From: Candidatus Tayloriibacteriota bacterium
Lineage (GTDB): Bacteria > Patescibacteriota > Minisyncoccia > Phycocordibacterales > PALSA-1337
DNA length: 64,000 nt
NCBI GenBank assembly: GCA_016215455.1
Contig: JACRJP010000002.1
Location: 2,809-66,808, forward strand
Direction: 5' to 3'
The position numbers and the translations under genes are program-made. Below the pieces are notes generated by a model, which worked only from the letters and a program-made list of their open reading frames with translations, was not told the DNA's origin and did not search any database. Numbering within the stretch: the first letter of the stretch is position 1; every line of letters starts with the position of its first letter. Below, piece by piece: positions 784-52,154 of this stretch.

Positions 784-1293
784 TCACCATTTCCAGGGAA
801 AAAATCGTGCAGAAAGCCCGACCGTAAATCCCTTTTCTTCAAACGAGGTGTGAAATCCACCTGGATACCGCGACTGAACGGAGAAAGAAATCTCAAGCCT
901 TTCCAATCGTTCAACCGGAATCTCCCCGACAAGCTCGTAAGTGTCGAGGCCATATCCACCGGACGCACTGCTCATGAAATACCGTTCGGTATTGAAGAGT
1001 GGTCCTTTGTAGCGCCACAGATCTCCCTCACGGAAACGAGGAGATTGCGAAGAAGAAAATTCTCCTCCTGAAGGCATGAATCGATCAACCCAAAAATCTT
1101 CGGTCGCCGGACACGACTTCGGGCACACAATGTGGCAACAAACTTGTTCGGAAATCCGATTCAAGGGAGTTGCTGGTAGGGTCGGTAACCCAAGAGCAGG
1201 ATCGTCCACATCGTGGTCATCTGCAGCTGCAGGAACACACGAAAGCGGAATGGCAGTAATGGCGAGGAGCAGGAGAGATCGGATGTAACACAT
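784..1293 (-). CDS. hypothetical secreted protein with N-terminal signal peptide; GC-rich islet
   Basis: 169-aa ORF with a hydrophobic N-terminus (MCYIRSLLLLAITAIPLSCVPAAA) and a Cys cluster (CCHIVCPKSCP). Local GC is visibly higher than the flanks. It abuts tRNA-Asp. Confidence 0.45.
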   Translation of the reverse strand: MCYIRSLLLLAITAIPLSCVPAAADDHDVDDPALGLPTLPATPLNRISEQVCCHIVCPKSCPATEDFWVDRFMPSGGEFSSSQSPRFREGDLWRYKGPLFNTERYFMSSASGGYGLDTYELVGEIPVERLERLEISFSVQSRYPGGFHTSFEEKGFTVGLSARFFPWKW

Positions 1294-1375
1294 AACAGAG
1301 TGAGTGGAGAGTGCTGCCGACAGAAAACTTCTGGCACAATTATACCCTTGCCATTTTTCTCACGCCACAGTCATG

Positions 1376-2668
1376 TTATGGATTCAAACGCTTTACATCT
1401 CGAGGTAAGTATGTTGCTTCGCGAACATTCGGAAGGTCAAGAATCTTCATAATAAGGCGTCCTGGCCCCATTCCAGCGCCACCGTGCGGAGGACAACCAA
1501 ATCTAAAGAAATTCAAATAATCTTTGAGAGCCTCGAGGTCCATACCTTTATCCACAGCCTGCTTTTCAAGAATTTCGATACGATGCTCACGCTGAGCGAG
1601 TGTAGTAACCTCAATTCCTCGGTACAAAAGATCGGCTCGGCGTGATCGATCTGAACCTTCAGTCAATCGCATATGATAGAACGCGCTCTTTGATTTATGG
1701 TATTCAGTGATGAATACAAAATCGTGATTCTTTGTCTTCTTTACATAGTCACATATCGCTCGTTCTTCTTCTGGAGAAAGATCATGTTCCTCACCAGAAG
1801 CTACACCCTCTTTAGCAAGAATTTCTTTTGCTTCAAGCATAGTGATACGAGGAAATGGTCGTGATGGTACTTCAATATTAAGTTCTGGAAAATCATTTTT
1901 AAGTTGCTCAAAAGCACTCACCAAAGCACCCTCCTCAGAATCCATGACATCCGCATGACTTTCGATATTTGAAATTTCAAAGTCAAAACCAGTAAATTCA
2001 GTAAGGTGTCGTGTTGTGAAAGAAAGTTCGGCACGAAATACAGGTCCAACCATAAACACCTTATCGAAACCTGACGCCATCGCCATTTGTTTATAAAACT
2101 GAGGTGACTGAGCAAGATATGCCTTACGATCAAAGTAATTAACCTCGAAAACCTCAGCCCCCGTTTCACTCGGTGTACTCATGAAAGACGGTGTATAGAT
2201 CTGAATATAGTCATTCTTGGCCCAATAAGCACGAAGACCTCTTTCGAATGATGTCCAGACCTTAAATATCTTTGTCTTTTCTGGCTTACGGAGATCAATC
2301 CAACGATAGTCAAAACGAGTTGTTGCTTCAGTCTCCTCCCCACCCTTAATCGTCACAACAGGAATTGGAAGTTCGGGAGCGGCGGCACCAAGTACTTCAA
2401 ATCCCGACACTTGAATTTCAACACCATTTGGAGCCTGTTTTGCAGTGACAAGTTTACCTCGCACAGAAATATATGACTCAAGAGTTAATTTTTTGAGTTC
2501 AGTAATAAGGGCTTCACCGAGAAACACACACTGTAAAATCCCTGAAACATTTCGAAGTGTAACAAATCCAATCTTTCCCTGATTACGGAGAAGATGAATA
2601 AAGCCGGCAACCTCTACTTCTTGATCAAGATGAGCTGGAAGTTCACTAATTTTTAATTGATGTTTCAT
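1376..2668 (-). CDS. aspS: aspartyl-tRNA synthetase, class II, archaeal/eukaryotic-type (short, no GAD insertion); likely non-discriminating
   Basis: 430 aa. Has the flipping-loop motif LAQSPQFYKQ, motif 2 (FRAE) and motif 3 (GGAGMGPGRL). The short length fits type-2 AspRS. gatC and gatA lie just upstream on the same strand. Confidence 0.85.
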   Translation of the reverse strand: MKHQLKISELPAHLDQEVEVAGFIHLLRNQGKIGFVTLRNVSGILQCVFLGEALITELKKLTLESYISVRGKLVTAKQAPNGVEIQVSGFEVLGAAAPELPIPVVTIKGGEETEATTRFDYRWIDLRKPEKTKIFKVWTSFERGLRAYWAKNDYIQIYTPSFMSTPSETGAEVFEVNYFDRKAYLAQSPQFYKQMAMASGFDKVFMVGPVFRAELSFTTRHLTEFTGFDFEISNIESHADVMDSEEGALVSAFEQLKNDFPELNIEVPSRPFPRITMLEAKEILAKEGVASGEEHDLSPEEERAICDYVKKTKNHDFVFITEYHKSKSAFYHMRLTEGSDRSRRADLLYRGIEVTTLAQREHRIEILEKQAVDKGMDLEALKDYLNFFRFGCPPHGGAGMGPGRLIMKILDLPNVREATYLPRDVKRLNP

Positions 2669-2691
2669 GGGATTGTTTATAATAAGTTTCT

Positions 2692-13688: not shown

Positions 13689-14897
13689 CTACTGAGCAGC
13701 TGAGATGTTATAGATAGGAACAAGCACAGCAGCAAGAAGGAATGCTACACCGAGACCGAGCATAACAATCATAAGTGGCTCAATAAGATCAACAAGTGCA
13801 TCAACAGCCGTCTCTACTTCACGTGCATAGAATTTAGCGAGAGTCTTTAGGATGTTACCGAGTTCTCCTGTTTCTTCACCCACCTTAATCATTTGAATCA
13901 TGATACCTGGGATTTGATCGTTACCTGACAATGCCTCAGAAACAGGTTTACCTCCCTTCACTGCCTCTACGGCGCCTGCAATAATAGAGTTATATATCTT
14001 GTTATCAATCACTGATGAGGTGAGTTCAAGAGCTCGGATCATAGGAATACCCGATACAAGCATAGTATTCATGTTATCTGACAAACGTGAGAGATATAGC
14101 TTCTTATAAAGAGTACTGATATATGGAACAGAAAGCTTAAATCGATCAAACGCAATACTTCCTTCTGGAGTCTTCACAAAACGATAGATAAGGTACCCTA
14201 TAATCGCTGCAATACCAACAATAACGAAACCGTAGTGTACCAAACCGTTACTAATAGCGAGAACGACTTTGGTGTAGATAGGAATCTCCTGACCTGATTC
14301 AACAATAATTGCACTGATCTTTGGAATCACAACAGTAAACATGAGTACCATCACAGTAACGAATGTAAATACCACGAAAGCTGGGTAAATAAGAGCGCTC
14401 TTTGCCTTTGAGGTAAGTTCATATGAACGATCAAGGTAGTCAGCAAGATAATTGAATGTTTCATCAAGACGTCCTGATTCTTCACCTGCCTTTACCATAC
14501 TGATATAAAATTCAGAGAACACTGTTGGATGTTTTCCAAGAGAAGTTGAGATAGAACTACCACCCTGAAGATCATCTGCAATAGTTGCGAGTTTTACTCG
14601 AAGGAGTTTGTTCTCTGTTTCCTCCCCAAGAAGACGGAAGACTCGAAGCGCAGAGACCTGCGCCTGAAAAAGTGTTGAGAGTTGTCGTGACAAGATAACA
14701 ACATCCTTATTTGACACTCGCTCAAACCACGAAATATTTACATCAAAAATAGACTTCTTTCCTCCTGTTTCGTGAATATTTGTGATGACAAAGCCTCGTC
14801 GCTGGAGTGATGCAATAGCAATGTCGACATTAACAGCATCAATTGATCCTGTTTTTTTCTCTCCTTGAGCATCGACAGCTTGGTAAGTAAAAAGCAT
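13689..14897 (-). CDS. pilC: type IV pilus inner-membrane platform protein (GspF/PilC family)
   Basis: 402 aa with two GspF-like repeats and three TM segments. Confidence 0.85.
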   Translation of the reverse strand: MLFTYQAVDAQGEKKTGSIDAVNVDIAIASLQRRGFVITNIHETGGKKSIFDVNISWFERVSNKDVVILSRQLSTLFQAQVSALRVFRLLGEETENKLLRVKLATIADDLQGGSSISTSLGKHPTVFSEFYISMVKAGEESGRLDETFNYLADYLDRSYELTSKAKSALIYPAFVVFTFVTVMVLMFTVVIPKISAIIVESGQEIPIYTKVVLAISNGLVHYGFVIVGIAAIIGYLIYRFVKTPEGSIAFDRFKLSVPYISTLYKKLYLSRLSDNMNTMLVSGIPMIRALELTSSVIDNKIYNSIIAGAVEAVKGGKPVSEALSGNDQIPGIMIQMIKVGEETGELGNILKTLAKFYAREVETAVDALVDLIEPLMIVMLGLGVAFLLAAVLVPIYNISAAQ

Positions 14898-14902: not shown

Positions 14903-15964
14903 TTATAACATTCTATCAAGAGTCTTAGGATTGAGCGAGTGTTGATATGCACTTTCTGCCGTAATTTCCCCTGCTCGAACAAGATCAGCGAGACATCGGT
15001 TCATATCGATCATACCTTCATTCGAACTTGTTTCAACAATAGTATTGATTTCATGAATACGTTTTTCACGAATGAGATTTGAAACAGCATTATTTGCAAT
15101 CAAAAGTTCGTATGCAGGGATAAGACCTCCTGATACTCGTGGAATAAGTCGTTGTGAAAAGATACCCGTAAGACTTCCTGCGAGCTGTACTCGAATCTGA
15201 TCCTGTTGTCCTGGTGGGAATGAGTCAATGATACGGTTAATGGTTTGTGAAGCATTATTCGTATGGAGTGTTGAGAAAATGAGGTGGCCAGTTTCAGCAG
15301 CTGTTACCGCTGTTGCCATAGTTTCGATATCTCGCATTTCACCAATAAGAGCAACGTTCACATCCTGACGAAGCATTCCAACAAGAGCTGTATGAAAATC
15401 CGGTGTATCAAAACGAACTTCTCGTTGATCGATAATCGACTTCTTTGATTCGTACATATACTCAACAGGATCTTCAATAGTAATGATATGCTCAGCTCGT
15501 GTCTGATTAATCATTTCAAGCATAGCTGCCAATGTGGTCGTCTTTCCTTGACCGATAGGTCCTACCACAAGAAAGAATCCCTGCTGTTTACGAGTGAATG
15601 TTTCAAGAATTGGAGGAAGATTAAGATCTTGAAGTGTCTTAATTGTTTTAGGAATCAAACGAAGTGCGACAGAAATAGCACCCTGACGATAAAAAGCATT
15701 TCCTCGAAAACGAGCGACACTCCCTACCGCATATGAGAAGTCCACTTCACGAAGCTCTTCAAATCGAGCTTTATTTTCTTTTGAAAGGAGCACATCGAGA
15801 AATCCATGAATATCCTTTTGAGTTAATTCAGTCTTTTTCACTAATGGCAAAAGTTGACTTGATACTCGAATGACTGGATGACGTCCTTCAGCAATGTGGA
15901 GATCAGAAGCCCCTTCTTTGAGCACCATATCTACCATTTCTTCAAGTTCTCTTTTGTAGTCCAT
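14903..15964 (-). CDS. pilT: type IV pilus retraction ATPase (PilT family)
   Basis: 353 aa. Walker A GPIGQGKTTT, Asp box, Walker B and a His box (TLHTN). Length is typical of PilT. Confidence 0.85.
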   Translation of the reverse strand: MDYKRELEEMVDMVLKEGASDLHIAEGRHPVIRVSSQLLPLVKKTELTQKDIHGFLDVLLSKENKARFEELREVDFSYAVGSVARFRGNAFYRQGAISVALRLIPKTIKTLQDLNLPPILETFTRKQQGFFLVVGPIGQGKTTTLAAMLEMINQTRAEHIITIEDPVEYMYESKKSIIDQREVRFDTPDFHTALVGMLRQDVNVALIGEMRDIETMATAVTAAETGHLIFSTLHTNNASQTINRIIDSFPPGQQDQIRVQLAGSLTGIFSQRLIPRVSGGLIPAYELLIANNAVSNLIREKRIHEINTIVETSSNEGMIDMNRCLADLVRAGEITAESAYQHSLNPKTLDRML

Positions 15965-29445: not shown

Positions 29446-29449
29446 ATTG

Positions 29450-30127: not shown

Positions 30128-30191
30128 TCATTCATGCTCAGCAATGTTCCCGGAACATTTGCTCGAGCTTTTTATTTAATCCATCTCTTCT

Positions 30192-33683: not shown

Positions 33684-33698
33684 CGTGTTCTTCAGTTT

Positions 33699-33756
33699 CC
33701 TTTTTATTACCCACCTCTTCTCTACATCTCCCATGAGACTTTTTACAAACTCTTTT
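33699..33756. repeat. imperfect ~58-bp direct repeat, copy 1 (remnant of a gene 3' end)
   Basis: TTTTTATTACCCACCTCTTCTCTACATCTCCCATGAGACTTTTTACAAACTCTTTTA matches 34345-34404 with about 4 differences. Both copies encode ...KEFVKSLMG(D/G)VEK on the minus strand. Confidence 0.6.
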
Positions 33757-33778
33757 AATATGCTAGGGTGTACGATGG

Positions 33779-37874: not shown

Positions 37875-37997
37875 CATCATCGCTCGTCGTATGACGGGTG
37901 ATTTTTTATTGGACTTTTTTGAATAAAACAGTAGTATAGAAATACCACGAAAGACGTGGTTGTCCTTCACATCAATCCTCAATCCCTCGAACAAACC

Positions 37998-38810
37998 ATG
38001 AAACGTTTGCTCCAATGGCTCGCTGCTTTTGCAGTGATCTTGTCCACCAATGCCGCCATCAATATCGAGGTGAGCTACGCGCTCGCTCCGAATGCATTCG
38101 GAAGTCCGAATTACGCTGCGTGGGTTGGTAACACCACCTACGCCGTCGAAAACGGCCTCACCAGCTATGGTGCTCCTGGCCCCGGACAATACAACCGTGT
38201 GGCGGGGAATCTCGACTACAACCAGATCGTCGTCACGGGGTTCCCCTCGTGGCTCGGCAATGCTGACCCGGCAGGGACATTCGGTCCCGCCTACGCAGCT
38301 GAACTCGGCAATCGTCTTCACGCACCCCTGCACATTGTGGGGACAGGTGGAACGACATTCTCGATCGACAAGCTGTCATTCACCATGACATCTTCAGATC
38401 CCGGAAACGGGCTAGGATTTTCCTTCGCCGCTGGAAGTTACACTTACAGCAGTCAGTATTATGGCATTCAATATGGTCTCAATGGAGTCAAAGGCGGAGG
38501 TGACGATGTCATCATCACCTCCGGACCGAGCTCAGTGCTCGTAAACGAGATCATCGGTCGTGGGAGTGGCAATGCTTATGCCGCCTACTCCACTGATCCT
38601 GGTGCCAGCAATCAGGACAAGATTTTCAATCTGATCGCGAACTTCAGCGACGATGGTCCGTTCACCGTGACCGCTACTTACAGCCTTGAAGACTCGAGTG
38701 GCTCCGCGGAAGTCCTCATCGGGACAGAAGTCCCTGAAAATTCGACATGGGCAGCTATTGCGTTTCTCACTCTCCCTGTCGGATGGGTTGTCCTTCGGCG
38801 ACGAAAGTGA
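37998..38810 (+). CDS. secreted protein with a PEP-CTERM-like C-terminal sorting signal; GC-rich islet
   Basis: Signal peptide MKRLLQWLAAFAVILSTNAA. The C-terminus reads ...EVPENSTWAAIAFLTLPVGWVVLRRRK (VPE, then a TM helix, then RRRK). Local GC is much higher than the flanks. Confidence 0.5.
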   Translation: MKRLLQWLAAFAVILSTNAAINIEVSYALAPNAFGSPNYAAWVGNTTYAVENGLTSYGAPGPGQYNRVAGNLDYNQIVVTGFPSWLGNADPAGTFGPAYAAELGNRLHAPLHIVGTGGTTFSIDKLSFTMTSSDPGNGLGFSFAAGSYTYSSQYYGIQYGLNGVKGGGDDVIITSGPSSVLVNEIIGRGSGNAYAAYSTDPGASNQDKIFNLIANFSDDGPFTVTATYSLEDSSGSAEVLIGTEVPENSTWAAIAFLTLPVGWVVLRRRK

Positions 38811-38899
38811 TTGATCACGAACTTTGATACGGCGCACACGTGGCGCTATTTTTATTTCACACAAACACAAAGATACTCCTTTAGGTTCCAAAATATGCT

Positions 38900-40009
38900 A
38901 TGATGATCCATCATATGACAACATCGACTACCGCTCCGAGCGAGACTCGCTGGTCACTCTACACCTCCCCTACAACTACATGGGAAGCAATATTTGCAGC
39001 ATGCGAACAAGCGACACAAAGTATTGATTTAGAACAATTTATTTTCGTCGATGACGAAATCGGAAGAAAACTTCTTGATATTTGTGCAACAAAGGCACAA
39101 CAAGGAGTGCGTGTACGTTTACTATGGGACGGTGCAGGAAGTTTTAATCTTTTTGGAAATTTCTTAATCTCAGAACTAAGTCAGAAACATATTCAAGTTG
39201 CCTTTTTTAACACAATACTTCCTCGAGCATTCCACAATCATCGTTGGTGGTTTTTTAGAAATCATCGACGTTCTATTGTAATCGACAAAACTATTGCTTT
39301 TACTGGTAGTTTCTCAATATGGGAAAAAACAAAAGAATGGCGTGATACAACCGTTAGAATTGAAGGGAGTATTGTTGCAAGTATTGAAGCTTCATTTGAG
39401 GTGATGTGGGCACGTGCGCATAATATAAAAACAGATTGGAGTGCACGTGCAGTCTCATCTGAAGATGGTTTCAGTTATGTTACCAATAGTCCTGTTCCTG
39501 GAAAACAGTTCCTCTACCACCGTATCATCGATGCTATTCGTAATGCACGTTCATATATTTGTATCACTACTCCCTATTTTGTCCCCGATCGACGACTTAT
39601 ACGCGTACTCCGACTTGCAGCACGTCGCAATGTCCTCGTACAAATTATTATTCCAGAATCTTCTGATCATCCCGTTGTCGACCTTGGTGCAGAATCATAT
39701 TTCCATGTCTTATTAACCGCTGGTGTCAAAATATTTAGAATTAAACAACCTCTCATTCACAGTAAATCAATTGTTATCGATGATGACTGGGCAACAATTG
39801 GAACAATGAACCTCGATAGTGTGAGTCTCCACTACAATTTCGAAGCAAATATCGTTAGTAACAAGCGTGAATTTGTAGAAGAAATAAAAACAATATTCTA
39901 TCAAGATCTTGAGATCGCAACTGAGGTACAACCACATATTTGGGAATCACGCCCCTTTACCCAAAAATGGCTCGAATTTCTCGTTAGGTTTGTTCGTACT
40001 TTTCTATAA
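38900..40009 (+). CDS. phospholipase D / cardiolipin synthase family protein (two HKD motifs)
   Basis: HRRSIVIDKTIAFTGSFSI and HSKSIVIDDDWATIGTMNLD. Both fit the HxKxxxxD consensus. Confidence 0.8.
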   Translation: MMIHHMTTSTTAPSETRWSLYTSPTTTWEAIFAACEQATQSIDLEQFIFVDDEIGRKLLDICATKAQQGVRVRLLWDGAGSFNLFGNFLISELSQKHIQVAFFNTILPRAFHNHRWWFFRNHRRSIVIDKTIAFTGSFSIWEKTKEWRDTTVRIEGSIVASIEASFEVMWARAHNIKTDWSARAVSSEDGFSYVTNSPVPGKQFLYHRIIDAIRNARSYICITTPYFVPDRRLIRVLRLAARRNVLVQIIIPESSDHPVVDLGAESYFHVLLTAGVKIFRIKQPLIHSKSIVIDDDWATIGTMNLDSVSLHYNFEANIVSNKREFVEEIKTIFYQDLEIATEVQPHIWESRPFTQKWLEFLVRFVRTFL

Positions 40010-40052
40010 AATATAGACAATTAAACCAAATTATGCTTAAATATAACAACAA

Positions 40053-40565
40053 ATGAGCACCCCTAAGGTTCGTATCAATCATCAGATCAAAGCCCCTGAA
40101 CTCCGTGTTATAGGAAGTGAGGGACAAAACTATGGTGTTATCCCTCTTTCTGAGGCTCTTAAGCATGCAGAAGAGGCTCACCTTGATCTTATTGAAATTT
40201 CCCCTACCGCAGTCCCTCCGGTTGCAAAAATCATGGATTATGGTAAATTTCAGTACGACGAGAAGAAGAAACAAAAGGTGGCAAAAGCTCGTACACAGAC
40301 CACTGAACTCAAGAATATTCAGGTAAAAATCGGCACTGGAGAGCACGATCTCGAGCTCAAAGCCAAAAAAGCCTCAGAATGGCTTGCCGAAGGTCATCGT
40401 GTAAAAATCGACCTGTTCCTCATTGGGCGCTCAAAATATATGGATTTTAAATTCCTTAAGGAACGTATGGATCGTATATTTCGTCTCATAACTACTGAAT
40501 ACAAGGTATCAGAAGAACCAAAGAAAGGTCCCAAAGGTCTCACCGCCGTTATTGAAAAGAAGTAA
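40053..40565 (+). CDS. infC: translation initiation factor IF-3
   Basis: 170 aa that matches the IF-3 N- and C-domain consensus. Followed by rpmI and rplT. Confidence 0.9.
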   Translation: MSTPKVRINHQIKAPELRVIGSEGQNYGVIPLSEALKHAEEAHLDLIEISPTAVPPVAKIMDYGKFQYDEKKKQKVAKARTQTTELKNIQVKIGTGEHDLELKAKKASEWLAEGHRVKIDLFLIGRSKYMDFKFLKERMDRIFRLITTEYKVSEEPKKGPKGLTAVIEKK

Positions 40566-40592
40566 GTTAGAACTAGCTATAGCAAAAATTTT

Positions 40593-40781
40593 ATGATGAA
40601 AACAAACAAATCTTATATGAAGCGGCTTAAGATCACTAAGAACAAGAAGATCTTAGCTCGAGCACCTGGACAGAACCATTTTAATTCAAAAGAAAGTCGC
40701 CGAAGTCAGCTCAATAAGAAGCGAATGGGTAACTTCCCTATCAGTAACAAGGCAAAGACACGACTTTTGGTGAATGCTTAA
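40593..40781 (+). CDS. rpmI: 50S ribosomal protein L35
   Basis: 62-aa basic protein (MKTNKSYMKRLKITKNKKI...). Confidence 0.85.
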   Translation: MMKTNKSYMKRLKITKNKKILARAPGQNHFNSKESRRSQLNKKRMGNFPISNKAKTRLLVNA

Positions 40782-40807
40782 TTAATCAGAACTATTAGAA
40801 AACTAAC

Positions 40808-41152
40808 ATGGTACGAGTAAAGAAAGGTGTTAACGCACTTAAAACACGAAGAAATATATTAAAGCAGGTAAAAGGCTATCGTTTTCGTCGAAGTAAGACT
40901 GAACGAGCTGCATACGAAGCTATCTCACACGCTGGTGCATATGCTTTTGCACACCGACGAGACAAGAAGGGTGACTTCCGCCGAGTATGGAATGTGAAGA
41001 TCAACGCAGCCCTACGACCATTGGGTATGTCATACAGTAAGTTCATGGGAGCAGTAAAGAAGAATAAGATTGAACTCGATCGAAAATCTCTCGCAACTCT
41101 CGCTGAATTCCACCCAAAGACATTCGAAGCAGTAGCAAAGAAGGTTGCGTAA
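40808..41152 (+). CDS. rplT: 50S ribosomal protein L20
   Basis: N-terminus MVRVKKGVNALKTRRNILKQVKGYRFRRSK... Confidence 0.9.
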   Translation: MVRVKKGVNALKTRRNILKQVKGYRFRRSKTERAAYEAISHAGAYAFAHRRDKKGDFRRVWNVKINAALRPLGMSYSKFMGAVKKNKIELDRKSLATLAEFHPKTFEAVAKKVA

Positions 41153-41167
41153 TATCTACAAGACCAA

Positions 41168-41205
41168 ACAAAAAAACTACCGCAAGGTAGTTTTTTTGTT
41201 TGTAA
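41168..41205 (+). terminator. rho-independent terminator after rplT
   Basis: A7 run, stem CTACC/GGTAG with loop GCAA, then T7 run. Confidence 0.7.
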
Positions 41206-41238
41206 TTAAAAAGGGTTAGTCGAATCAAAGGAGGCTGA

Positions 41239-41577
41239 TTACGCCAACTGTTCCTGGAGCACAGCGGCTCGAGAAAGCGCTGCGTAGTCATTCTCCATTG
41301 GTTCTGTTTCGACCGCACCGCCGAACCAAGGCAAACCGAAATGAGCGAAGGCAAGCTTCAATGTCTCGATGGCGTCCTCATAAGCGAGGCGCACAAGATC
41401 ACCGATTTCAGACAATTCCTGACGACAGAACTCAGCAATTTCGCCACCGAACATCTCCGAGACCCGAGAAAGGAAGGTTCCTTTCGCCGGACGGTAGAGA
41501 CGGTGGTCCAATTGATGATGAAGGATCGTCTTCTTGTTGGAATGATGACGTGCTGAGGATTTGCGGTGAGCACTCAT
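41239..41577 (-). CDS. hypothetical protein in a GC-rich islet
   Basis: The open frame has visibly higher GC than its surroundings. I trimmed the start to the ATG at 41577 to avoid overlapping the stop of the upstream gene. No recognised motif. Confidence 0.35.
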   Translation of the reverse strand: MSAHRKSSARHHSNKKTILHHQLDHRLYRPAKGTFLSRVSEMFGGEIAEFCRQELSEIGDLVRLAYEDAIETLKLAFAHFGLPWFGGAVETEPMENDYAALSRAAVLQEQLA

Positions 41578-41660
41578 GACTTCGGGGGGTGTAATATTTG
41601 AGAGAACACCAGTTATGGTAACTGGATAATTCACGAGGACATCTGGATAGGGATTATACA

Positions 41661-43034
41661 CTAAATCAGTTCATATGTCACCCCCTTCTCAGGACACACG
41701 GTGGATATCCCTATCTCATCATGAAGACGCTGGGCAAGGAATAATGCGGACTTTGGCTCCCCCATTGCAATGAATACCTTCTTCAAACTCGAAGCTCCTG
41801 TTGCAACAAACTTCACAAGATTATCAGAATCCTTATGAGCTGAATATCCAAATATTTCTTCGATATGAGCACGCACCGGAACTTTCTCTCCATCAATACT
41901 TACTTTCTTTTCTCCGTTCTGAAGAAGTCTTCCGAGAGTTCCAAGTGGTTGGTATCCAACAAGAAGAATTGTATTTTTTGCTTCAGGAAGATATGCAGAT
42001 TCATGTTGGCGCACACGACCACCGGAAGACATTCCTGAACCAGCGATGATAATCTTCGCATCCATATTTCGATCAATCGACTGAGAATCCTTACTATTCG
42101 CTACAAATTTTAATCGAGGAAAGGCAAACACATCATCCCCTCCCTTAATACGCTTCTGTGTTTCTTCATTAAATACATGAGTATTTGATCGATACACTTC
42201 AGTTACTTTTGTTGCAAGTGGTGAGTCGATATATACAGGTAATTCAGGAACAGCCCCTGATTCAACAACGTCATTAAGCTCATACAACAATACTTGTGTT
42301 CGTTCTACTGAAAAAGCAGGGATCACAAGAGTACCTCCCCGCGAAAATGTATCCTGAATAACCTTAATTAATTTAGCTCGACGCTCATCCTTTGATTCAT
42401 GGTTACGATCACCATAGACACTTTCCATAATAAGATACTCAGCACCTTCGATTGACTCAGTATCACGAAGTAATGGACTTGGAGAATTTCCAAGATCTCC
42501 TGTAAACACAACCTTTGTAATTCCCTTCTCCACTGTAAAAGAACACTCAAACATTGATGAACCGAGAATATGTCCCGCGTCTTTTGCATACAGAGAAAAA
42601 CCTTCGTACAACATAACTGGTGTATGGTATTCAATGGTCTTCCACATAGTTAGAGCCTTAGCCACATCTTCCTTATCATATATAGTAAGTACTCCTTTCT
42701 GACGGGCATCTTTTTCAAGTAATATCACCGCATCTTCCATGATGTATTGAGCAATAGCAAATGTTTGTGAGGTTGAATAAATAACACCCTTAAATCCATC
42801 CTTCACCAATTTTCCAATACGACCAACATGATCGAGATGACCATGAGTAACAAGCAGGATGTCTATCCCTGCAGGATCATACGCAAATGGCTTATGATTT
42901 TCAGCATCAGCTTCCGGACTTCCTTGAGCTAAACCACAATCAACAAGAACTTTTTTACCACCATACTCAATCATGAAGTTTGCTCCAGTAACGCTCCCTA
43001 CCCCTCCGTAGCATGTGAGTTTAGGATTAGACAT
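41661..43034 (-). CDS. MBL-fold beta-CASP family hydrolase (RNase J/CPSF-like RNA-metabolising nuclease)
   Basis: Metallo-beta-lactamase motifs (LVTHGHLDHVG plus downstream His/Asp ligands). The ~450-aa length fits beta-CASP enzymes. Confidence 0.65.
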   Translation of the reverse strand: MSNPKLTCYGGVGSVTGANFMIEYGGKKVLVDCGLAQGSPEADAENHKPFAYDPAGIDILLVTHGHLDHVGRIGKLVKDGFKGVIYSTSQTFAIAQYIMEDAVILLEKDARQKGVLTIYDKEDVAKALTMWKTIEYHTPVMLYEGFSLYAKDAGHILGSSMFECSFTVEKGITKVVFTGDLGNSPSPLLRDTESIEGAEYLIMESVYGDRNHESKDERRAKLIKVIQDTFSRGGTLVIPAFSVERTQVLLYELNDVVESGAVPELPVYIDSPLATKVTEVYRSNTHVFNEETQKRIKGGDDVFAFPRLKFVANSKDSQSIDRNMDAKIIIAGSGMSSGGRVRQHESAYLPEAKNTILLVGYQPLGTLGRLLQNGEKKVSIDGEKVPVRAHIEEIFGYSAHKDSDNLVKFVATGASSLKKVFIAMGEPKSALFLAQRLHDEIGISTVCPEKGVTYELI

Positions 43035-44995: not shown

Positions 44996-47902
44996 TTAGA
45001 TTGGGAGATTTACAGGAGGTTGTTGTGTAGGTTTCGATACCGGAACATCAGAGGTTCGTGATACTGGTGGGGTATCCACAACGAAGCGTGGAGTCGTATT
45101 AAGTGGGGTGCGAGGTACTGTCGGAGTCGCAGATGGTAGTTTTGGACGTTCATACTTCTTCATGACCTCACTTTCAACAATACTTCGTTCACGACCATAC
45201 TTCAAATATGAGAGTTCCTTAAGATTTGGAACAATTCCCTTGTCACCCGCTACTGGAGCGATAGTTTCAATATCAAAGGGTTTAATTGGTTGACCATTTG
45301 AGAGGATCTTGAGATACGCATGACGGTTCTCAATATTCATGAGGTCTTTTGCAGTAAAGACTGGTGAGAACTGCTTTTCAAGATATTCAGCATCGTCAGC
45401 ACCTACACGAAATACTGCCATTGAACCGACGTTACCGAACACTGAATCACGAATACCCTCTTCAAGTTGGGCGATAAACTGATGCGCGATATTAAGTGAC
45501 AACTTATACTTTCGAGCTTCAGACAAAATGGTTGAAATAGAATTTGTTGTAACATTCTGGAATTCATCGATATACAAATAGAATGATGGCAAATTCTGAC
45601 CGAGTGAATCAACACGTGAAAGTGCTGCCATAAGAATTTTACCCACAAGAATGAGACCAATGAGATTAGCATTGATATCTCCAAGACGTCCCTTTGAAAG
45701 ATTAACCAAAAGAATCTTCTTTGAGTCCATGATCTCACGGAAATTAAACGTCGATTTCTCTTGAGCAACAATCGGACGCATAATATCATTCGACAAAAAC
45801 ACATCGAATTTACTTGTGATATACGGCACAATATTTGAAAGAGATGCTTCCCCTCCCGCCTTCTCAGCGACATCTCTCCAGAACTGAACAACAATTGGAT
45901 TCTTACATCGTGAAAGTTTAAGTTCACGATATTGTTTCTGAGCAAGAACGCGTGATACATCAAGGAGTGTATTTCCTGATTCAGGATCTTCCATGACAAG
46001 AAGTACTGCGTTACGGAAATACTGCTCAAACATTGGACCTCCTGCCGTCTTCATATCAAACAACTTATTAAATATCGACAACATCTCATTCACCACGAAT
46101 GTTTTTTGTTCAGGATATCGAGCATCAAACTCAAGCATGTTGAGTCCCATCGGGCGATCGGTGTATCCAGGATCAAAATAAATAACGTCTTCATATCGAT
46201 GTCGTGGAATCGCAGCTAGAATATCCTGGATGTCAGAGCCGTGAGGGTCAATCATACACACACCGTCTCCCCTCTCAATATCCTGAATGATCATGTTCTT
46301 GAGAAGTGTTGTCTTACCGGTACCTGTCTGACCAATAGCGTAGAAGTGGCGTAGACGATCTTCATCAGTAAGGAATATTTTTGTTGTGATATTTCGATGG
46401 TGATTAAGACCGAGCACAGTACCTTGCTGTGGCAAATCGATTGGTGCAGGAGCACCACCAGCCTTTGATATTTTGAGTTGAGGAGCTGTTCGTATAACCG
46501 TTGATGGAAAATGGACCATACTTGTAAGTTCTCGGAAACTTAGAGGAATCTTCTGATCCTCATCAAAAAGACGGAAAGTAAAATCATGAATACCGTGTGC
46601 TAGACCATTACCAATCAAACGATTAAATCGAATTCGATTTCCGGTTGGATTATCAAATTGATTAAATGCAGATTCAATCTCCCCCAACACATTACTTGCA
46701 GTCATTTCATCTTTAGCTGATGCGACAATACGAATATTCGCCAAGACAATTGGACTTGAAATTTTATTCTTAATATTCTCAACTGCAATCGCATCAACAG
46801 GAACAGTTTCTTCCTCCTTCTTTTCAGAAAAAGTTTTTACAATATCCTTACCAAATGCCCATATATGTTCAAACTTAGACTCAGGTATATCAATCGCTTC
46901 TTTAACCTTTGTTCCTTTATTAATCTTATCAATTGCCTTCTTGTACGCTCCTGTGTACTTATCACCACAAGGATTAAATATCATCTGAAGAGCTGCCCCC
47001 TGACCATCCTTAGCTATCTTTGAAAATGAATTGAGAATAACATTGAGTGGATCATGATCAAATTGTTCATATGTCTTGAGAGAAAATATCGGCTTACGAC
47101 CTGACATAGCATACGACATTTTGGTAACACCCTTTTCAGAAAAGATATTATAATCATCTTTTTTCTCAACTATCTTTGCATTATGGAAGATAGAGAGAAT
47201 CTGTTTTTCAAGAAGATTCCTTTTTGTATCATGGACAGCGACATAGAAAACAAACTCATCGCTATGATTCGCTACTGCAATTTCAAAAGCAAAAAAATTG
47301 GTACCATCCTGATTATCATCATTAACCGACAACATACCTGCATAGAATTGTTCCATTGATGAGACAAGTTCTTTGAGATTCTTTTGCTCAGCATCCTTGC
47401 CCGCTTCAGGAAGTGTCACTTCATAGAGAGTTACTTTCAATGCACGATACAAAGAGTCGCTTTCTTTAAGACCTGGAATAGGAAAACCTGCCTTAATATA
47501 CTGCACAAGAAAACGTTCGAAGTCATCCTCAATATGTGGATCCTTCAGATTTTTTACAATTGTAAGAGCGTTTTTAAAACCTTTTTCTCGAAAGATTCCA
47601 ACAAGTTCAGCCATCGTATCATCATGCGTCTCGGGAGTAAGTTCAAGAACAATAGCCTCGGTTTCGCGTGCTGAAGCAGCATACTCCGGATGCAACACTT
47701 CCCCTGGATGAACTTGACCGTACTCTTTAATAACCTCACGTGCAATATGAGACTGTTCAGAAGAAGAGATGTTGGCAAGTTTACCTTCAACTTTACGCGA
47801 TGCTAGTTCACGTTCTTTTTCAGCAACTTGAGCACGTAGATATGCAAGCTCCTGTTCAGGATTACGAAGACCCGCTTGAATATCAAGAGAAAACTTTTCC
47901 AT
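44996..47902 (-). CDS. large soluble P-loop ATPase of the FtsK/HerA/T4CP (TraG-VirD4)/VirB4-like class, with a ~480-aa N-terminal domain and a Pro-rich tail
   Basis: 968 aa. Walker A HFYAIGQTGTGKTT. About 260 aa downstream is a Walker B-like motif YLYIDEFQN, followed by AHQ. No TM helix. The C-terminal ~60 aa are Pro/Thr-rich. Confidence 0.6.
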   Translation of the reverse strand: MEKFSLDIQAGLRNPEQELAYLRAQVAEKERELASRKVEGKLANISSSEQSHIAREVIKEYGQVHPGEVLHPEYAASARETEAIVLELTPETHDDTMAELVGIFREKGFKNALTIVKNLKDPHIEDDFERFLVQYIKAGFPIPGLKESDSLYRALKVTLYEVTLPEAGKDAEQKNLKELVSSMEQFYAGMLSVNDDNQDGTNFFAFEIAVANHSDEFVFYVAVHDTKRNLLEKQILSIFHNAKIVEKKDDYNIFSEKGVTKMSYAMSGRKPIFSLKTYEQFDHDPLNVILNSFSKIAKDGQGAALQMIFNPCGDKYTGAYKKAIDKINKGTKVKEAIDIPESKFEHIWAFGKDIVKTFSEKKEEETVPVDAIAVENIKNKISSPIVLANIRIVASAKDEMTASNVLGEIESAFNQFDNPTGNRIRFNRLIGNGLAHGIHDFTFRLFDEDQKIPLSFRELTSMVHFPSTVIRTAPQLKISKAGGAPAPIDLPQQGTVLGLNHHRNITTKIFLTDEDRLRHFYAIGQTGTGKTTLLKNMIIQDIERGDGVCMIDPHGSDIQDILAAIPRHRYEDVIYFDPGYTDRPMGLNMLEFDARYPEQKTFVVNEMLSIFNKLFDMKTAGGPMFEQYFRNAVLLVMEDPESGNTLLDVSRVLAQKQYRELKLSRCKNPIVVQFWRDVAEKAGGEASLSNIVPYITSKFDVFLSNDIMRPIVAQEKSTFNFREIMDSKKILLVNLSKGRLGDINANLIGLILVGKILMAALSRVDSLGQNLPSFYLYIDEFQNVTTNSISTILSEARKYKLSLNIAHQFIAQLEEGIRDSVFGNVGSMAVFRVGADDAEYLEKQFSPVFTAKDLMNIENRHAYLKILSNGQPIKPFDIETIAPVAGDKGIVPNLKELSYLKYGRERSIVESEVMKKYERPKLPSATPTVPRTPLNTTPRFVVDTPPVSRTSDVPVSKPTQQPPVNLPI

Positions 47903-49590: not shown

Positions 49591-50355
49591 CTATACAGTC
49601 AATATCTCAGCATCACCCTTTGTAATCAGGATAGTATGTTCAAAATGAGCACTTGGCTTACCATCTTTTGTCTTATAGGTATAACCATCCTTATCAAGAA
49701 ATACCTTATGAGTCCCTAAATTGAGCATAGGTTCAATAGCAAGCACCATACCAGGAACAAGCTTAGGACCTGTCTTTGGTTCACCATAGTTAGGTACATA
49801 TGGATCTTCGTGTACTTTATACCCCACACCATGACCCACAAGCTCTTCAATAAGGCCGTAACCATATGGCAATGCTGTTCGTTCAATAGCGGAACCAATA
49901 TCCCCTACAGTCTTTCCTGCTTTTGCTGCTTTGATACCAGCCATGAGTGCTGCTTTAGTAACACTGAGTAATCGTTCAACATCAGTACTAATTTTTCCAA
50001 CGGGAACGGTAACAGCAGCATCTGTAAAAAGACCTCCGTGAATAAGTCCGAGATCAATACTTACAATATCCCCCTCTTTCAAAATATGCTCTGTTCCTGG
50101 AAGACCGTGAACTACTTCGTCATTAATCGAAGTACAGATACTCGCAGGATATGGATAGGCTGCACCCTCTGGTTGATAGCCGAGAAATGATGAGGTATCG
50201 CCTCCTTCTTTGATGAGAGTAAACGCAAGATCATCAAGTTCTTTTGTTGAAACGCCCGGTGCTACTTTTGCAGTAATAGCCTTAAGAATTTCGGCATGAC
50301 GTTTACCACCCTCTCGTAGAATTCGTATATCGTCTTTTGTCTTAATAGTAATCAT
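49591..50355 (-). CDS. map: methionine aminopeptidase, type I
   Basis: 254 aa with the conserved metal-ligand D, D, H, E, E pattern and the MetAP-I consensus. Confidence 0.9.
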   Translation of the reverse strand: MITIKTKDDIRILREGGKRHAEILKAITAKVAPGVSTKELDDLAFTLIKEGGDTSSFLGYQPEGAAYPYPASICTSINDEVVHGLPGTEHILKEGDIVSIDLGLIHGGLFTDAAVTVPVGKISTDVERLLSVTKAALMAGIKAAKAGKTVGDIGSAIERTALPYGYGLIEELVGHGVGYKVHEDPYVPNYGEPKTGPKLVPGMVLAIEPMLNLGTHKVFLDKDGYTYKTKDGKPSAHFEHTILITKGDAEILTV

Positions 50356-50948
50356 GAGAATTTTGCGATATGTTCCACAATATCAGCATGCACTACATCA
50401 ATAGGTCGATCACCATTAATTTCTATAAAATTATAATGTGGATTATTACGATAATACTCAATAGTAGGAATCACATTAGAATCAAACCATGTCAGACGTT
50501 CTTCAATTTCCTCTTTATGATCATCACCACGACCTCGAGCAAGAAGTCGCTCGACTGAAGTGCTTTTTGGTACATTAATATACACAACAAAAGGTTTTGA
50601 AAGATTATAGAAACCAAATAGTGAATGAAGAACACCCGCTTCGTGCACTTTGCGTGGTGTACCATCAATAATGAGATGTTCTCCACCAGTATATGATTGA
50701 ATCATTCGATTTGCCCACATATAGATCATCAAAAATTCTGGTTCGAGATCCCCTCGATCATATATTTCTTTAGCAAAGCGTTGTGTCACACCATCATGGG
50801 CAATAAACTCACGAAGTTCACTTCCACTCTGTAAGTAAAGAACTCTCTTTTCGTTAGAATTTTTCTTGAGATACTCGGAAAGAAGCGTACCCTGCGTACC
50901 CTTCCCACACCCTGAACGACCCATAAGAATAATAGCTGTTTGATGCAT
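50352..50948 (-). CDS. adk: adenylate kinase
   Basis: P-loop GRSGCGKGTQG and LID/NMP-binding motifs. It overlaps the map start by 4 nt. Confidence 0.85.
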   Translation of the reverse strand: MHQTAIILMGRSGCGKGTQGTLLSEYLKKNSNEKRVLYLQSGSELREFIAHDGVTQRFAKEIYDRGDLEPEFLMIYMWANRMIQSYTGGEHLIIDGTPRKVHEAGVLHSLFGFYNLSKPFVVYINVPKSTSVERLLARGRGDDHKEEIEERLTWFDSNVIPTIEYYRNNPHYNFIEINGDRPIDVVHADIVEHIAKFS

Positions 50949-51182
50949 ACACCCTAGTATAGCCTAAATATATCAAAAAAGTAAGAAAATAGGCCTAAAA
51001 ATAGCCTCTTATATGAGTTTTCCACAGTATCCACATTGAGTGGATAAGTCTTTACTTGACGAGGGTAAGTATGGTATAATACGCCTAGACACGCAGAACT
51101 TCGAAAGTTCACCCGATTCGCACCTGTAGTGCGTCTTGACTGTGTCTTGTCTCAACCTCAACATAACGAAAGGACCGAAGCC

Positions 51183-52154
51183 ATGAAACGCTTCCTTCTC
51201 ATCGTGAGCCTCGCGCTCACACTCGGTATCGCTGGGGTTGCACAAACCCCTTCTAGCAACTCGGTCTCTCTCGCAACTCAGCTCCCTCTCGGGACCGCTG
51301 AGCGGCTTGAGGAGAATGCGCGTTCGCGCATTACTTACCTGACCGTATTCCTCTGGTTCACTGACTCGACCAAACTGATCAAGGAGTTCACTCCTGTGAG
51401 GTTTGATTCGACCAGTGAAGACCTCGAGACCTTTGTTCCTCGAGTCCTTGGAGAAAAGCTTGCGCTTCTCAACAGTCTCGCTATCACCAATACGGGGCGG
51501 CCTATACAGCTCGCCTACAAGTTTGTTGATAGTCGACTCATCATGCTGTTTTTTGGCACAGCTGAATTCACGTTGGAAAACCGCAACGGACAGTGCTCTG
51601 CACCGCTCGATGTGGAATACAACTGGCAGCTGCGCCCAGGATACGCTACTGGGTTTGGGATGCATGTCCCTGGGATTGTGAAGGCACATCTTGTTGCCCA
51701 AGACGGGACAAACACACTCTTTGACAAGGAGATCGATCGGAACACCAACGACAATGGGTTCGGAATCATGTCGACCATCGACTATCTCTTTCTCCCTCCT
51801 GAAGCCATCACCAATGGCTACAACGGAGAGTTGACGATATGGGTCAAGGACGGCAGTGACCCAAGTGGTCTCAGAATGGCGACCTACGACCTCCAAACAG
51901 GGGTTCGAACGTCTCCCATTCATCTGACCATGACCGCCTACTATCAAGGGGTCACGATCAAGATCACTGGGTCTCCAGGAAAGTCGGTAGCGCTTTGCCG
52001 CTCTACCACTCTTGGGGAGACACCTACAGTCTTTCAAACATTCATCTTGGACAGTGGTGGTGCCACCACTGTCCACATCAGCACAGAGGACACTGACTCT
52101 GTCACCGGATTCTTCAGCGCAAAGTATGTCGCAAGCGACAGTGCTAAGCGTTGA
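51183..52154 (+). CDS. hypothetical secreted protein in a GC-rich islet between adk and secY
   Basis: AAAGGA Shine-Dalgarno sequence before the ATG. Signal peptide MKRFLLIVSLALTLGIAGVAQ. Followed by a strong terminator. The antisense 355-aa ORF is treated as a shadow. Confidence 0.5.
   Translation: MKRFLLIVSLALTLGIAGVAQTPSSNSVSLATQLPLGTAERLEENARSRITYLTVFLWFTDSTKLIKEFTPVRFDSTSEDLETFVPRVLGEKLALLNSLAITNTGRPIQLAYKFVDSRLIMLFFGTAEFTLENRNGQCSAPLDVEYNWQLRPGYATGFGMHVPGIVKAHLVAQDGTNTLFDKEIDRNTNDNGFGIMSTIDYLFLPPEAITNGYNGELTIWVKDGSDPSGLRMATYDLQTGVRTSPIHLTMTAYYQGVTIKITGSPGKSVALCRSTTLGETPTVFQTFILDSGGATTVHISTEDTDSVTGFFSAKYVASDSAKR

Follow-up and report, generated by a model that had tools for sequence, protein, structure and literature searches.

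The window, by which we mean the entire 64,000-nucleotide stretch analysed, belongs to a contig of Candidatus Taylorbacteria (CPR/Patescibacteria) and has a GC content of 0.410. Five single coding sequences in this 41% GC contig have a GC of 49-55% and a GC3 of 0.46-0.60, and these are referred to below as islets I1 to I5. They are located at 784-1293 on the minus strand (I1; GC.506, z 4.4; GC3.46, z 2.9), 29663-30127 on the plus strand (I2; GC.488, z 3.6; GC3.52, z 4.1), 37998-38810 on the plus strand (I3; GC.549, z 6.3; GC3.59, z 5.3), 41239-41577 on the minus strand (I4; GC.525, z 5.2; GC3.55, z 4.6) and 51183-52154 on the plus strand (I5; GC.528, z 5.4; GC3.60, z 5.5). Each gene was scored against the 66 other ORFs (GC 0.407±0.023, GC3 0.303±0.053), and the starts of I2 (29663) and I4 (41577) are those of the NCBI annotation rather than of the longest ORFs.

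When GC was profiled in 400-nt windows, the top GC3-driven peaks fell at 801-1400 (0.50), 29601-30200 (0.47), 38001-38800 (0.53-0.57), 41201-41600 (0.51) and 51001-52200 (0.51-0.535). A boundary scan in 50-nt steps places the limits of the GC-rich tracts at those of the coding sequences, with the intergenic flanks dropping to 0.24-0.36. The initial annotation had described five GC-rich islets in AT-rich surroundings, each holding one ORF without a recognised motif, and this description is borne out at all five places: the excursions are real, each tract coincides with a single CDS, and no Pfam, NCBIfam, PHROG or PADLOC family scores above threshold for any islet protein. Two other GC bumps, at 57401-58000 and 63001-63600, correspond to ribosomal-protein genes, and in the former (rpsE) the excess comes from GC1 and GC2, not from GC3. 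Two mildly GC-elevated ORFans of 151 and 183 amino acids (33228-34330, plus strand; GC3.41 and.45), which lie directly 3' of the tmRNA gene and were absent from the initial annotation, belong to the same class as the islets.

The islets are genuine protein-coding accessory genes, given that their junctions are reproduced by independent assemblies and that strain SNPs fall mainly at third codon positions. Four independent Logan assemblies contain identical or near-identical islet junctions; one of them, built from another run, matches at 100% through a 21.3-kb segment that includes I3 to I5, and assemblies from other samples also contain I3 together with I5 (98.7%) and I2 (99%). The third-position skew is evident in I2, I3 and I5, and in I5 the strain SNPs are distributed as 10, 8 and 21 over the three codon positions of the annotated frame. 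Long ORFs are present on both strands in I3 and I5. The antisense frame of I5 was considered as a coding sequence and rejected, as it would carry 2 synonymous versus 26 non-synonymous strain changes.

I1, which encodes a 169-amino-acid ORFan (MBI5126152), is located between the AspRS gene (1376-2668) and tRNA-Asp(GTC) (618-692, minus strand). Its protein has a hydrophobic stretch resembling a signal sequence at the N-terminus, together with a conserved 'PLSC' motif. The product of I2 is a 154-amino-acid ORFan (MBI5126184) whose gene lies between tRNA-Ile(TAT) (29449-29523, minus strand) and ftsH. Both tRNA genes were found by ARAGORN and Rfam, and thus two islets do abut tRNA genes, each on the 5' side of its tRNA. 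Comparison of I2 with its counterpart in the independent assembly L089 (99% identity) places seven of ten SNPs at third positions and gives a divergence of 2.15%, versus 0.79% in ftsH; no relatives of I2 turned up when metagenome or viral contigs were scanned by pattern.

I4 encodes a 112-amino-acid ORFan (MBI5126197) directly downstream of a beta-CASP/MBL hydrolase gene; like that of I2, its small product is cytoplasmic. I4 sits in a strain-variable cassette of ~430 nt (about 41212-41639), the conserved left border of which is a perfect 17-bp inverted repeat (41165-41202) resembling the terminator hairpin of rplT. In a sister strain that is 98.7% identical overall, the interval that runs from the rplT terminator to the end of the beta-CASP gene is occupied by unalignable GC-rich (.51) sequence with a 116-amino-acid ORF, and the two ORFs have only an 8/21-residue motif in common. 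I4 alone shows recent turnover, its cassette having been swapped outright between strains.

I5 is predicted to encode a secreted, beta-rich, lineage-restricted protein of 323 amino acids, for which the AF2 model (pLDDT 70.6) suggests an Ig/FN3-like fold. It had been described as a terminator-flanked insertion between secY and adk, and this is indeed its setting: the interval between adk (50352-50948) and secY (55404-56675, assigned through a Pfam match on the corresponding gene of the sister-strain contig) holds I5 and three Pfam-less genes, and I5 has hairpin/T-run sites on one side (50991-51046) and, on the other, a perfect inverted repeat of 13 bp with A/T runs (52197-52225). The latter forms a bidirectional terminator-like hairpin between I5 and a convergent gene for a Pfam-less protein of 681 amino acids (52245-54290, minus strand; GC3.27). 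This gene is a conserved neighbour, as its homolog adjoins the I5 homolog in locus L085; in L086, a sequence that by eye resembles it also adjoins the I5 homolog. A search of 1.84 billion representatives yielded no more than two homologs of I5, each on a low-GC contig, and the three family members have GC3 values of.60,.49 and.43 versus.24-.36 for their neighbours.

I3 is the islet for which ancestry is best documented. It encodes a putative secreted beta-sandwich protein of 270 amino acids that is a member of a PEP-CTERM surface-protein family, and it is flanked by genes for an MFS transporter and a PLD-like protein. The protein ends in a decayed sorting motif, with VPEN, a transmembrane helix and RRRK. 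Its family comprises 160 homologs, many of them with PF07589, and is native to Acidobacteria, Verrucomicrobia, Planctomycetes and Proteobacteria. Among the 80 genome loci surveyed, homologs in these four non-CPR phyla have a gene GC within about 0.05 of their flanks, whereas at 13 low-GC CPR-like loci the gene is a GC-rich singleton, 0.05-0.19 above its flanks. All CPR copies were monophyletic in 0 of 100 bootstraps, and one of them (L020) pairs with an acidobacterial gene in 97 of 100. Judging from these compositions and this tree, the ancestry of I3 is foreign and lies among GC-rich diderm bacteria, and the family has made its way into CPR genomes on several occasions, with different phyla as sources.

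The initial annotation also reported signal peptides at the starts of I1, I3 and I5, in agreement with the hydrophobic, signal-like N-termini seen in the translations and conserved in homologs. I1 and I5 are probably secreted, lineage-restricted proteins, and display at the cell surface would be a plausible consequence. I3 would be exported through the Sec pathway and, in a monoderm-like cell, probably tethered to the membrane by its surviving C-terminal helix and Arg/Lys cluster. Mere tethering is proposed in view of the decay from PEP to PEN in the motif that an exosortase would recognise. The PEP motif is gone in 6 of the 13 CPR-like copies versus about one in ten of the others, while the transmembrane helix and basic tail are retained.

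The age of the islets was assessed against one genus-level relative, in which the loci of I1, I3 and I5 are covered and which shares 72% amino-acid identity with the window in adk, 85% in map and 86% in SmpB. All three islets have homologs there at the same loci and with the same GC contrast, and thus are not recent. The I1 homolog (24% identity, E 3e-15; GC.505, GC3.53) occupies the same slot between the AspRS and tRNA-Asp genes, the I3 homolog has a GC3 of.58, and the I5 homolog (37% identity, GC3.49) is likewise adjacent to adk. Islet proteins are 24-52% identical between the two species, versus 72-92% for housekeeping proteins. In I5, four-fold sites are as well conserved between the two species (r=0.24) as those of housekeeping genes (r=0.21), a sign of vertical descent since the species split. 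The corresponding sites of I3 are saturated (r=0.01, with an upper confidence bound of 0.14 that is below the housekeeping range; 28% identical vs 27% by chance), and its copies in the window and the relative were grouped in just 30 of 100 bootstraps, which falls short of proof that I3 was inherited vertically.

Strain comparisons reveal a further regularity. Across 25 genes, divergence between strains correlates with GC3 (rho.55, p=.004). The 151-amino-acid ORFan differs by 19% between genomes that are 98.7% identical overall, the region adjacent to the tmRNA gene is variable, and this ORFan, I5 and the 681-amino-acid gene are several-fold to ~20-fold more diverged than their neighbours.

The explanation we favour, with confidence and doubt in about equal measure, is that the five islets are accessory genes inserted singly among housekeeping genes and that they are mostly long-standing residents whose foreign-type GC has partly decayed. 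Most of them would have arrived by about the time of the split from the genus-level relative, or earlier, after which the proteins evolved very fast and the foreign-type GC was only partly lost. Their sites would act as small 'flexible' loci, where the GC-elevated genes differ most between strains. Entry and allele exchange most likely proceeded through DNA uptake by a type IV pilus/competence system followed by recombination, and not through a mobile element. The original proposal of single-gene horizontal acquisition stands in so far as the islets are single, foreign-looking genes and I3 came from GC-rich bacteria, but a foreign origin is demonstrated for I3 only; for I1, I2, I4 and I5 we infer it. 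Several observations run against this explanation, among them that the 681-amino-acid gene is strain-variable (3.0% divergence) but not GC-rich, and that the search of 1.84 billion representatives placed I5 homologs in low-GC CPR-like contigs only.

A less likely but credible reading takes the islets, I1 and I5 at least and perhaps also I2 and I4, as CPR genes specific to their lineage, in which GC3 stays high at a steady state and is not a relic of a donor. GC-biased gene conversion at often-recombining loci in a naturally competent cell, or selection on codon or mRNA composition, are candidate causes. Such maintenance would account for an I5 family limited to low-GC contigs in which every member is GC-elevated, for the GC-rich alleles on both sides of the I4 exchange, for the tracking of strain divergence or replacement by GC3 and for further GC-rich singletons at loci of related MAGs. 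It would also account for a contrast shared by two species at a distance where the four-fold sites of housekeeping genes are ~80% randomised. A neutral-relaxation model calibrated with 1,112 such sites implies a GC4 at the species split of ~0.77 for I3 and ~0.88 for I5. Since values of 0.8-0.9 would be needed in several genes together, GC may be actively maintained; under neutral decay, all these genes would be new arrivals right at the split, from donors with a GC of 65% or more, a coincidence that active maintenance, or repeated replacement, fits better. However, a donor explanation is directly supported for I3, whose four-fold sites lack site-specific conservation, and its CPR copies tend to have a higher GC3 the more they resemble their closest homolog outside CPR (rho.47, n=13, p=.10), as decay predicts. 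The 681-amino-acid gene and other surface genes, namely a pseudopilin gene and a 424-amino-acid gene, evolve fast and yet have GC3 values of.25-.29. In addition, reported effects of GC-biased gene conversion in bacteria are far below a doubling of GC3.

The initial annotation had instead envisaged five recent, independent gains of single genes, plausibly via pilus and competence machinery and, more speculatively, from a GC-rich host, which we now consider improbable. Pilus machinery is present, with PilB, PilT, PilC and PilM encoded by a type IV pilus cluster in the window, and natural competence has been shown experimentally in Saccharibacteria (PMC10633639). The complete replacement of I4 between near-identical strains and the repeated entry of the I3 family into CPR genomes also agree with this proposal. 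Against it, I1, I3 and I5 are syntenic in the relative with their contrast unchanged, the four-fold sites of I5 point to vertical descent, and the GC excess ends with each CDS, with no donor-derived flanking DNA. Recency is therefore not supported for I1, I3 and I5, strain-level turnover is seen at I4 only, and a GC-rich donor is supported for I3 by family GC pattern and tree but not for I5, which lacks a GC-rich homolog.

There is little to recommend the view that the islets are integrase, integron or phage cassettes, carried by small elements that target tRNA genes or attC-like sites. Proximity of two islets to tRNA genes, strain variation beside the tmRNA gene and exchange of the I4 cassette between fixed borders might suggest such elements. 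However, both tRNA-linked islets lie on the 5' side, the islet borders are free of direct repeats, duplicated att sites and shared inverted repeats, and the flanking genes are housekeeping genes rather than integrases (AspRS, RecG, FtsH, MFS, PLD, beta-CASP and adk), so the tRNA adjacency is not supported as an integration signal. No islet has a PHROG match, tblastn with I1, I2 and I4 was negative for 50,697 phage and 72,556 plasmid records, and the viral structural matches of the I5 model are generic FN3 domains (TM-score <=0.2).

Chimeric assembly, contamination or structured RNAs, whose known signature is GC-rich intergenic tracts within AT-rich genomes and which the double-stranded ORFs of I3 and I5 might also recall, can be dismissed as a most improbable source of the islets, and are already refuted for I2, I3 and I5, by the reproduced junctions, the third-position bias, homologs that align over their full length and an Rfam search without a match at gathering or E<=1 thresholds.

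Among the closest known systems are the transferred regions of groundwater Patescibacteria (mSystems 2025, PMC12455944), where hundreds of islands and common, mostly not recent single transferred genes were attributed to diverse donors, with pili and competence as the proposed route. The islet genes are likewise mostly not recent, but they are strictly single coding sequences without island hallmarks, their GC contrast persists at syntenic loci in species separated at the genus level, and the I3 family turns up repeatedly as a singleton among many CPR lineages.

I3 also resembles PEP-CTERM/exosortase-sorted proteins (TIGR02595, PF07589), sharing 40-55% identity over the whole ectodomain with PF07589 carriers and the layout of signal peptide, ~220-amino-acid domain, C-terminal motif, transmembrane helix and Arg cluster. 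It differs in reading VPEN instead of VPEP, in scoring under the TIGR02595 cut-off (13.8 bits vs 16), and in residing in a CPR genome; our literature search returned no paper treating CPR and exosortases together.

Replacement-type flexible genomic islands, reportedly described by Rodriguez-Valera and colleagues, are said to hold divergent alleles of surface genes at the same locus in closely related strains. The swap of I4 between fixed borders, the hyper-divergence of I5 and of the 681- and 151-amino-acid genes, and the secreted appearance of three of the five islet proteins are reminiscent of these islands. Unlike such islands, with their multi-gene clusters for glycosylation or O-antigen, the islets are single genes with a GC above rather than below that of the genome, and I4 itself is cytoplasmic. 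The amelioration model of horizontally acquired genes, reportedly due to Lawrence and Ochman, predicts more decay than is observed unless GC4 was near 0.8-0.9 at the species split, as judged from housekeeping four-fold sites. It is nonetheless consistent with the weak trend for copies nearer to donors to be GC-richer, and with islet GC3 values that lie between those of the donor type (.7-.9) and that of the genome (.30).

Five single-gene islets differ in composition from the remainder of the window, which has an overall GC content of 0.410. These are I1 (positions 784-1293, minus strand), I2 (29663-30127, plus strand), I3 (37998-38810, plus strand), I4 (41239-41577, minus strand) and I5 (51183-52154, plus strand). 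The initial annotation had named these places as GC-rich, and calculation in 400-nt windows revealed that they are the five strongest GC3-driven excursions. Measured against the 66 other ORFs of the window (GC3 of 0.303±0.053), all five are atypical, with z-scores of +3.6 to +6.3 for GC and +2.9 to +5.5 for GC3. The GC excess begins and ends at the limits of the coding sequences, and the intergenic flanks have only 24-36% GC. Mild elevation (GC3 of.41 and.45) is also seen in two ORFs at 33228-34330, just 3' of the tmRNA gene; these belong to the islet set. GC further rises mildly at 57.4-58.0 kb and at 63.0-63.6 kb, in both cases inside ribosomal-protein genes; in the first of these (rpsE), the excess resides in GC1 and GC2, and GC3 is ordinary. 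An opposite, AT-rich excursion at 24800-25400 (GC of.30-.32) covers a 204-aa ORF (24931-25545, GC of.33) and adjoins a normal tRNA-Ser(GCT) gene (25586-25675) identified by ARAGORN. Low-GC contigs (41-44% GC) from related Taylorbacteria-type genomes contain other single ORFs with GC3 values of.49-.78 (L004:9987-10331, L004:13045-13629 and L003:4171-5793), and therefore GC-rich singletons seem to be general to the group.

The window belongs to a Candidatus Taylorbacteria genome (CPR/Patescibacteria) assembled from a metagenome, in which it lies on a contig of 244,953 bp, and it encodes proteins MBI5126152-MBI5126210. Its genes include a block for ribosomal proteins, secY, adk and map, as well as those for AspRS, GatCA, LigA, RecG, FtsH and SmpB, and there are seven tRNA and tmRNA genes. 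ARAGORN also reports a tRNA-Ser with the anticodon ACT (23186-23274, loop TTACTAA) and a tRNA-Ile with the anticodon TAT (29449-29523), both of which are unusual for bacteria. A 968-aa protein (44996-47902) has weak matches to TrwB/TraG (type IV coupling protein) and DUF8128, and may be part of the conjugation-like T4SS described for Patescibacteria (PMC12102498). Cumulative GC skew falls monotonically over positions 1-64000, to -26.8. The minus strand carries most genes, and I2, I3 and I5 are located on the minority (plus) strand, whose genes in general apparently have somewhat higher GC3.

The islets are real genes rather than artefacts. A Logan assembly of SRR12113407 (L090, considered as a third strain) matches the window at 100% identity from 31661 to 52974, which spans I3, I4 and I5. 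In contigs of a sister strain (SRR22388193, 98.7% identical), I3 and I5 have the junctions seen in the window, and I2 is found on a contig from SRR21713533 (99.0% identical). Read in the annotated frames, strain differences fall mostly at third codon positions, with 7 of 10 there in I2; the three positions have 2, 1 and 6 differences in I3, and 10, 8 and 21 in I5. A long ORF antisense to I5 was ruled out as a coding sequence by 2 synonymous versus 26 non-synonymous changes. The idea that the islets are structured RNAs was dropped once Rfam searches of the whole window at gathering thresholds, and of 37800-41800 at E<=1, returned no match inside the islets. Searches with Pfam, NCBIfam, PHROGs and PADLOC gave no match above threshold for any islet protein.

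Mobile-element explanations for the islets fare little better. The neighbouring tRNA genes, the interruption between secY and adk and the flanking hairpins are all as first described. However, reading the tRNA neighbours as a sign of integration finds no support, and a tRNA-targeted integrative island was rejected, because I1 and I2 lie on the 5' side of tRNA-Asp and tRNA-Ile, respectively, with no att repeat. Indeed, the islet borders carry no target-site duplications, att repeats, direct repeats or shared border motifs, and the islet neighbours are housekeeping genes rather than integrases, with AspRS, RecG and FtsH adjoining the tRNA-adjacent islets. An integron gene cassette, judged by the islet flanks, was dismissed in the same way, given that the hairpins are ordinary terminators, that no inverted repeat is common to the borders, and that the islets are scattered rather than arrayed. 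PHROGs profiles gave no phage match, and tblastn searches of phage and plasmid records with I1, I2, I4 and the alternative I4 allele described below were also empty. The most economical route would be DNA uptake by a pilus or competence apparatus, followed by recombination. This proposal draws on the type IV pilus cluster of the window, composed of PilC (13689-14897), PilT (14903-15964), PilB (16416-18146), PilM (19859-20980) and pseudopilins, on the natural competence experimentally demonstrated in Saccharibacteria (PMC10633639), and on the same route having been proposed for Patescibacteria generally (PMC12455944).

I3 is of foreign origin. Its 270-aa product has 160 homologs with 40-55% identity and E-values down to 1e-74. 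Many of these homologs carry the PEP-CTERM domain PF07589, and some, in Acidobacteria, are named PEP-CTERM proteins, a name that NCBI gives to one of the homologs. Along the family alignment, a signal peptide precedes a conserved domain of ~220 aa, and the C-terminal signal reads VPEP-TM-RRR. As read from the translation and aligned with the family, the I3 product begins with the signal peptide-like sequence MKRLLQWLAAFAVILSTNA and ends with STWAAIAFLTLPVGWVVL-RRRK, in which a hydrophobic transmembrane segment leads into a basic cluster; AF2 predicts helices at the termini. The copy in the window has VPEN in place of the Pro-Glu-Pro motif, scores 13.8 bits with TIGR02595 (cut-off of 16), and has no Pfam match, including to PF07589. 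The syntenic copy (P0019) in a relative represented by SRR33465437 passes TIGR02595 with 18.2 bits. Thus, the window protein resembles PEP-CTERM proteins in passenger homology and in its putative signal peptide, transmembrane segment and basic tail, and departs from them in the motif.

Scanning a single genome for each species gave 80 loci of the I3 family. In Acidobacteria, Verrucomicrobia, Planctomycetes, Proteobacteria and Armatimonadota, the GC content of the gene equals that of its flanks (differences of -0.05 to +0.03). At 13 low-GC loci, whose labels are Taylorbacteria, Moranbacteria, 'Saccharibacteria' or uncultured, the GC of the gene exceeds that of the flanks by 0.05-0.19, in most cases as a spike of one gene. 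Bootstrapped neighbour-joining trees never unite these CPR-like copies in a clade of their own (0/100): one copy joins an acidobacterial gene (97/100), and Phycisphaerae are the partners of another (69/100). The composition relative to flanks and the scattering of the CPR-like copies argue that the direction of transfer was from diderms to CPR, several times, and I3, which is placed among genes of unrelated taxa, is foreign. The tree and the flank comparison therefore uphold the proposed horizontal acquisition for I3. For I5 the proposal has no such support: every homolog lies in a low-GC, CPR-like contig.

When 1.84 billion representatives were scanned exhaustively with HMMER, just two I5 relatives emerged (38% and 26% identity); a word-indexed search of 5.8 billion proteins uncovered none. 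Both homologs reside in low-GC contigs (L085 and L086), one of them at the same adk-adjacent position. In the window, the convergent neighbour of I5 is a gene for a 681-aa protein (52245-54290, minus strand); the L085 homolog of I5 has a convergent partner with confirmed homology to this protein, and the partner in L086 resembles it by eye only. The 681-aa protein gene has a GC2 of.55 and is one of three genes without a Pfam match (119, 212 and 681 aa; 52245-55331) that break the secY-adk junction. All three known I5 family members have elevated GC relative to their neighbours. When a third strain was considered for polarising the strain differences, its I5 sequence clustered with that of the second strain, and most changes thus fall on the unrooted branch. 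The I5 structure model is Ig/FN3-like (pLDDT of 70.6), and comparison with the BFVD viral structure library yielded TM-scores of <=0.2. For I1, a homolog in the SRR33465437 relative (24% identity, E of 3e-15) occupies the same position between AspRS and tRNA-Asp, has a GC of.505, and keeps the signal segment and a 'PLSC' motif; a pattern-based scan of JGI metagenome contigs with the I1 alignment found no relatives.

The products of I2 and I4 are small and lack signal peptides. Pattern-based scans, which are of limited reach, found no relatives of I2 among JGI metagenome contigs and viral contigs, or of I4 among viral contigs. A PDB sequence search with the set of I1, I2 and I4 reached a best E-value of only about 0.6.

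The acquisitions had also been described as recent, and on this point the relative is informative. Its proteins share 72% (adk), 85% (map), 86% (SmpB), 79% (PLD) and 92% (FtsH) identity with those of the window, a genus-level difference. At the loci of I1, I3 and I5 it has homologs of all three, whose GC3 values are.53,.58 and.49, respectively. Retention of the same loci together with the GC contrast had been set beforehand as contradicting a recent origin, and by that standard recent acquisition is refuted for these three islets. I2, I3 and I5 are also present in sister strains. Recency survives only for I4, the sole islet with recent turnover: the strain of 98.7% identity has no alignable counterpart to the ~430 nt that run from the rplT terminator to the end of the beta-CASP gene, and its segment there holds a different GC-rich (.51) ORF of 116 aa, whose sole likeness to I4 is a motif with 8 of 21 residues shared.

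Four-fold-degenerate sites add detail, through r, the identity between window and relative retained above chance. Nine housekeeping pairs, pooled (1,112 sites, GC4 of.24), give an r of 0.207 (CI of.167-.247). The I5 pair (67 sites, GC4 of.60 and.46) gives 0.244, which implies that I5 has descended vertically since the two lineages split. For I3 (80 sites, GC4 of.50 and.46), r is 0.01 (upper CI of.14), and this pair is more diverged than the housekeeping genes. Simple F81-type relaxation requires GC4 values at the split of ~0.77 for I3 and ~0.88 for I5, and under this model values that high presuppose a fresh arrival of the genes, at that time, from very GC-rich donors. Ordinary decay of a donor signature is favoured by the I3 copies in CPR, which tend to be GC-richer when they are nearer to a non-CPR homolog (rho of.47, p=.10).

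The islets are also sites of strain-level change. Most genes differ by 0.3-1.5% between sister strains, compared with 2.15% for I2, 3.0% for the 681-aa protein gene, 4.0% for I5 (15 synonymous and 15 non-synonymous codon changes), and outright replacement for I4. The gene for a 151-aa protein (33228-33683) differs by 19% in nucleotides and 22% in amino acids. Over 25 genes, strain divergence correlates with GC3 (rho of.55, p=.004). This link and the I4 cassette swap mark where the population-level variation of the lineage concentrates, and could serve as a strain marker. A strain-variable region lies directly 3' of the tmRNA gene (32711-33683), where the 98.7%-identical strain has a 4.3-kb insert (L001:945-5240) that is absent from the window and encodes a 348-aa protein, two Peripla_BP_6 proteins and TrmB (GC of.36-.40).

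The main unexplained point in the decay account is the coincidence of arrival with the split, together with the absence of a GC-rich I5 homolog, and this keeps active GC maintenance or repeated allele replacement alive as an explanation. In its fullest form, the explanation would treat the GC contrast as a maintained state, not a fading donor signature, in fast-evolving, mostly surface-exposed 'flexible' genes of naturally competent CPR cells, with CPR lineages repeatedly capturing one diderm PEP-CTERM family. The contrast would then be caused by GC-biased repair at recombination hot spots, or by continual allele replacement from a GC-rich pool, and the PEP-CTERM family might have been captured to engage host matrix or envelope. 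We consider this combined proposal unlikely. Even so, the GC contrast at syntenic loci outlasts a genus-level split, and neutral amelioration fits it only marginally. For this reason, small, competent, AT-rich genomes may suit tests of composition maintenance, perhaps as a clean system for asking whether recombination or selection holds composition off mutational equilibrium.

Our literature search found no paper linking PEP-CTERM or exosortase with CPR biology, and here low-GC CPR genomes that are unrelated to one another repeatedly carry one PEP-CTERM-type surface-protein family as a lone GC-rich gene, whose exosortase motif is decaying. The recurrent import of the I3 type is a concrete candidate for a surface factor that episymbionts derived from their hosts, and the nearest I3 donor clades hint at possible hosts. 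For Patescibacteria, single transferred genes and islands have already been described, and most of them are not recent (PMC12455944); the islets themselves are therefore not a new kind of element. Set against that earlier work, the parts that merit follow-up are the recurrent capture of the PEP-CTERM family and the lasting GC contrast.
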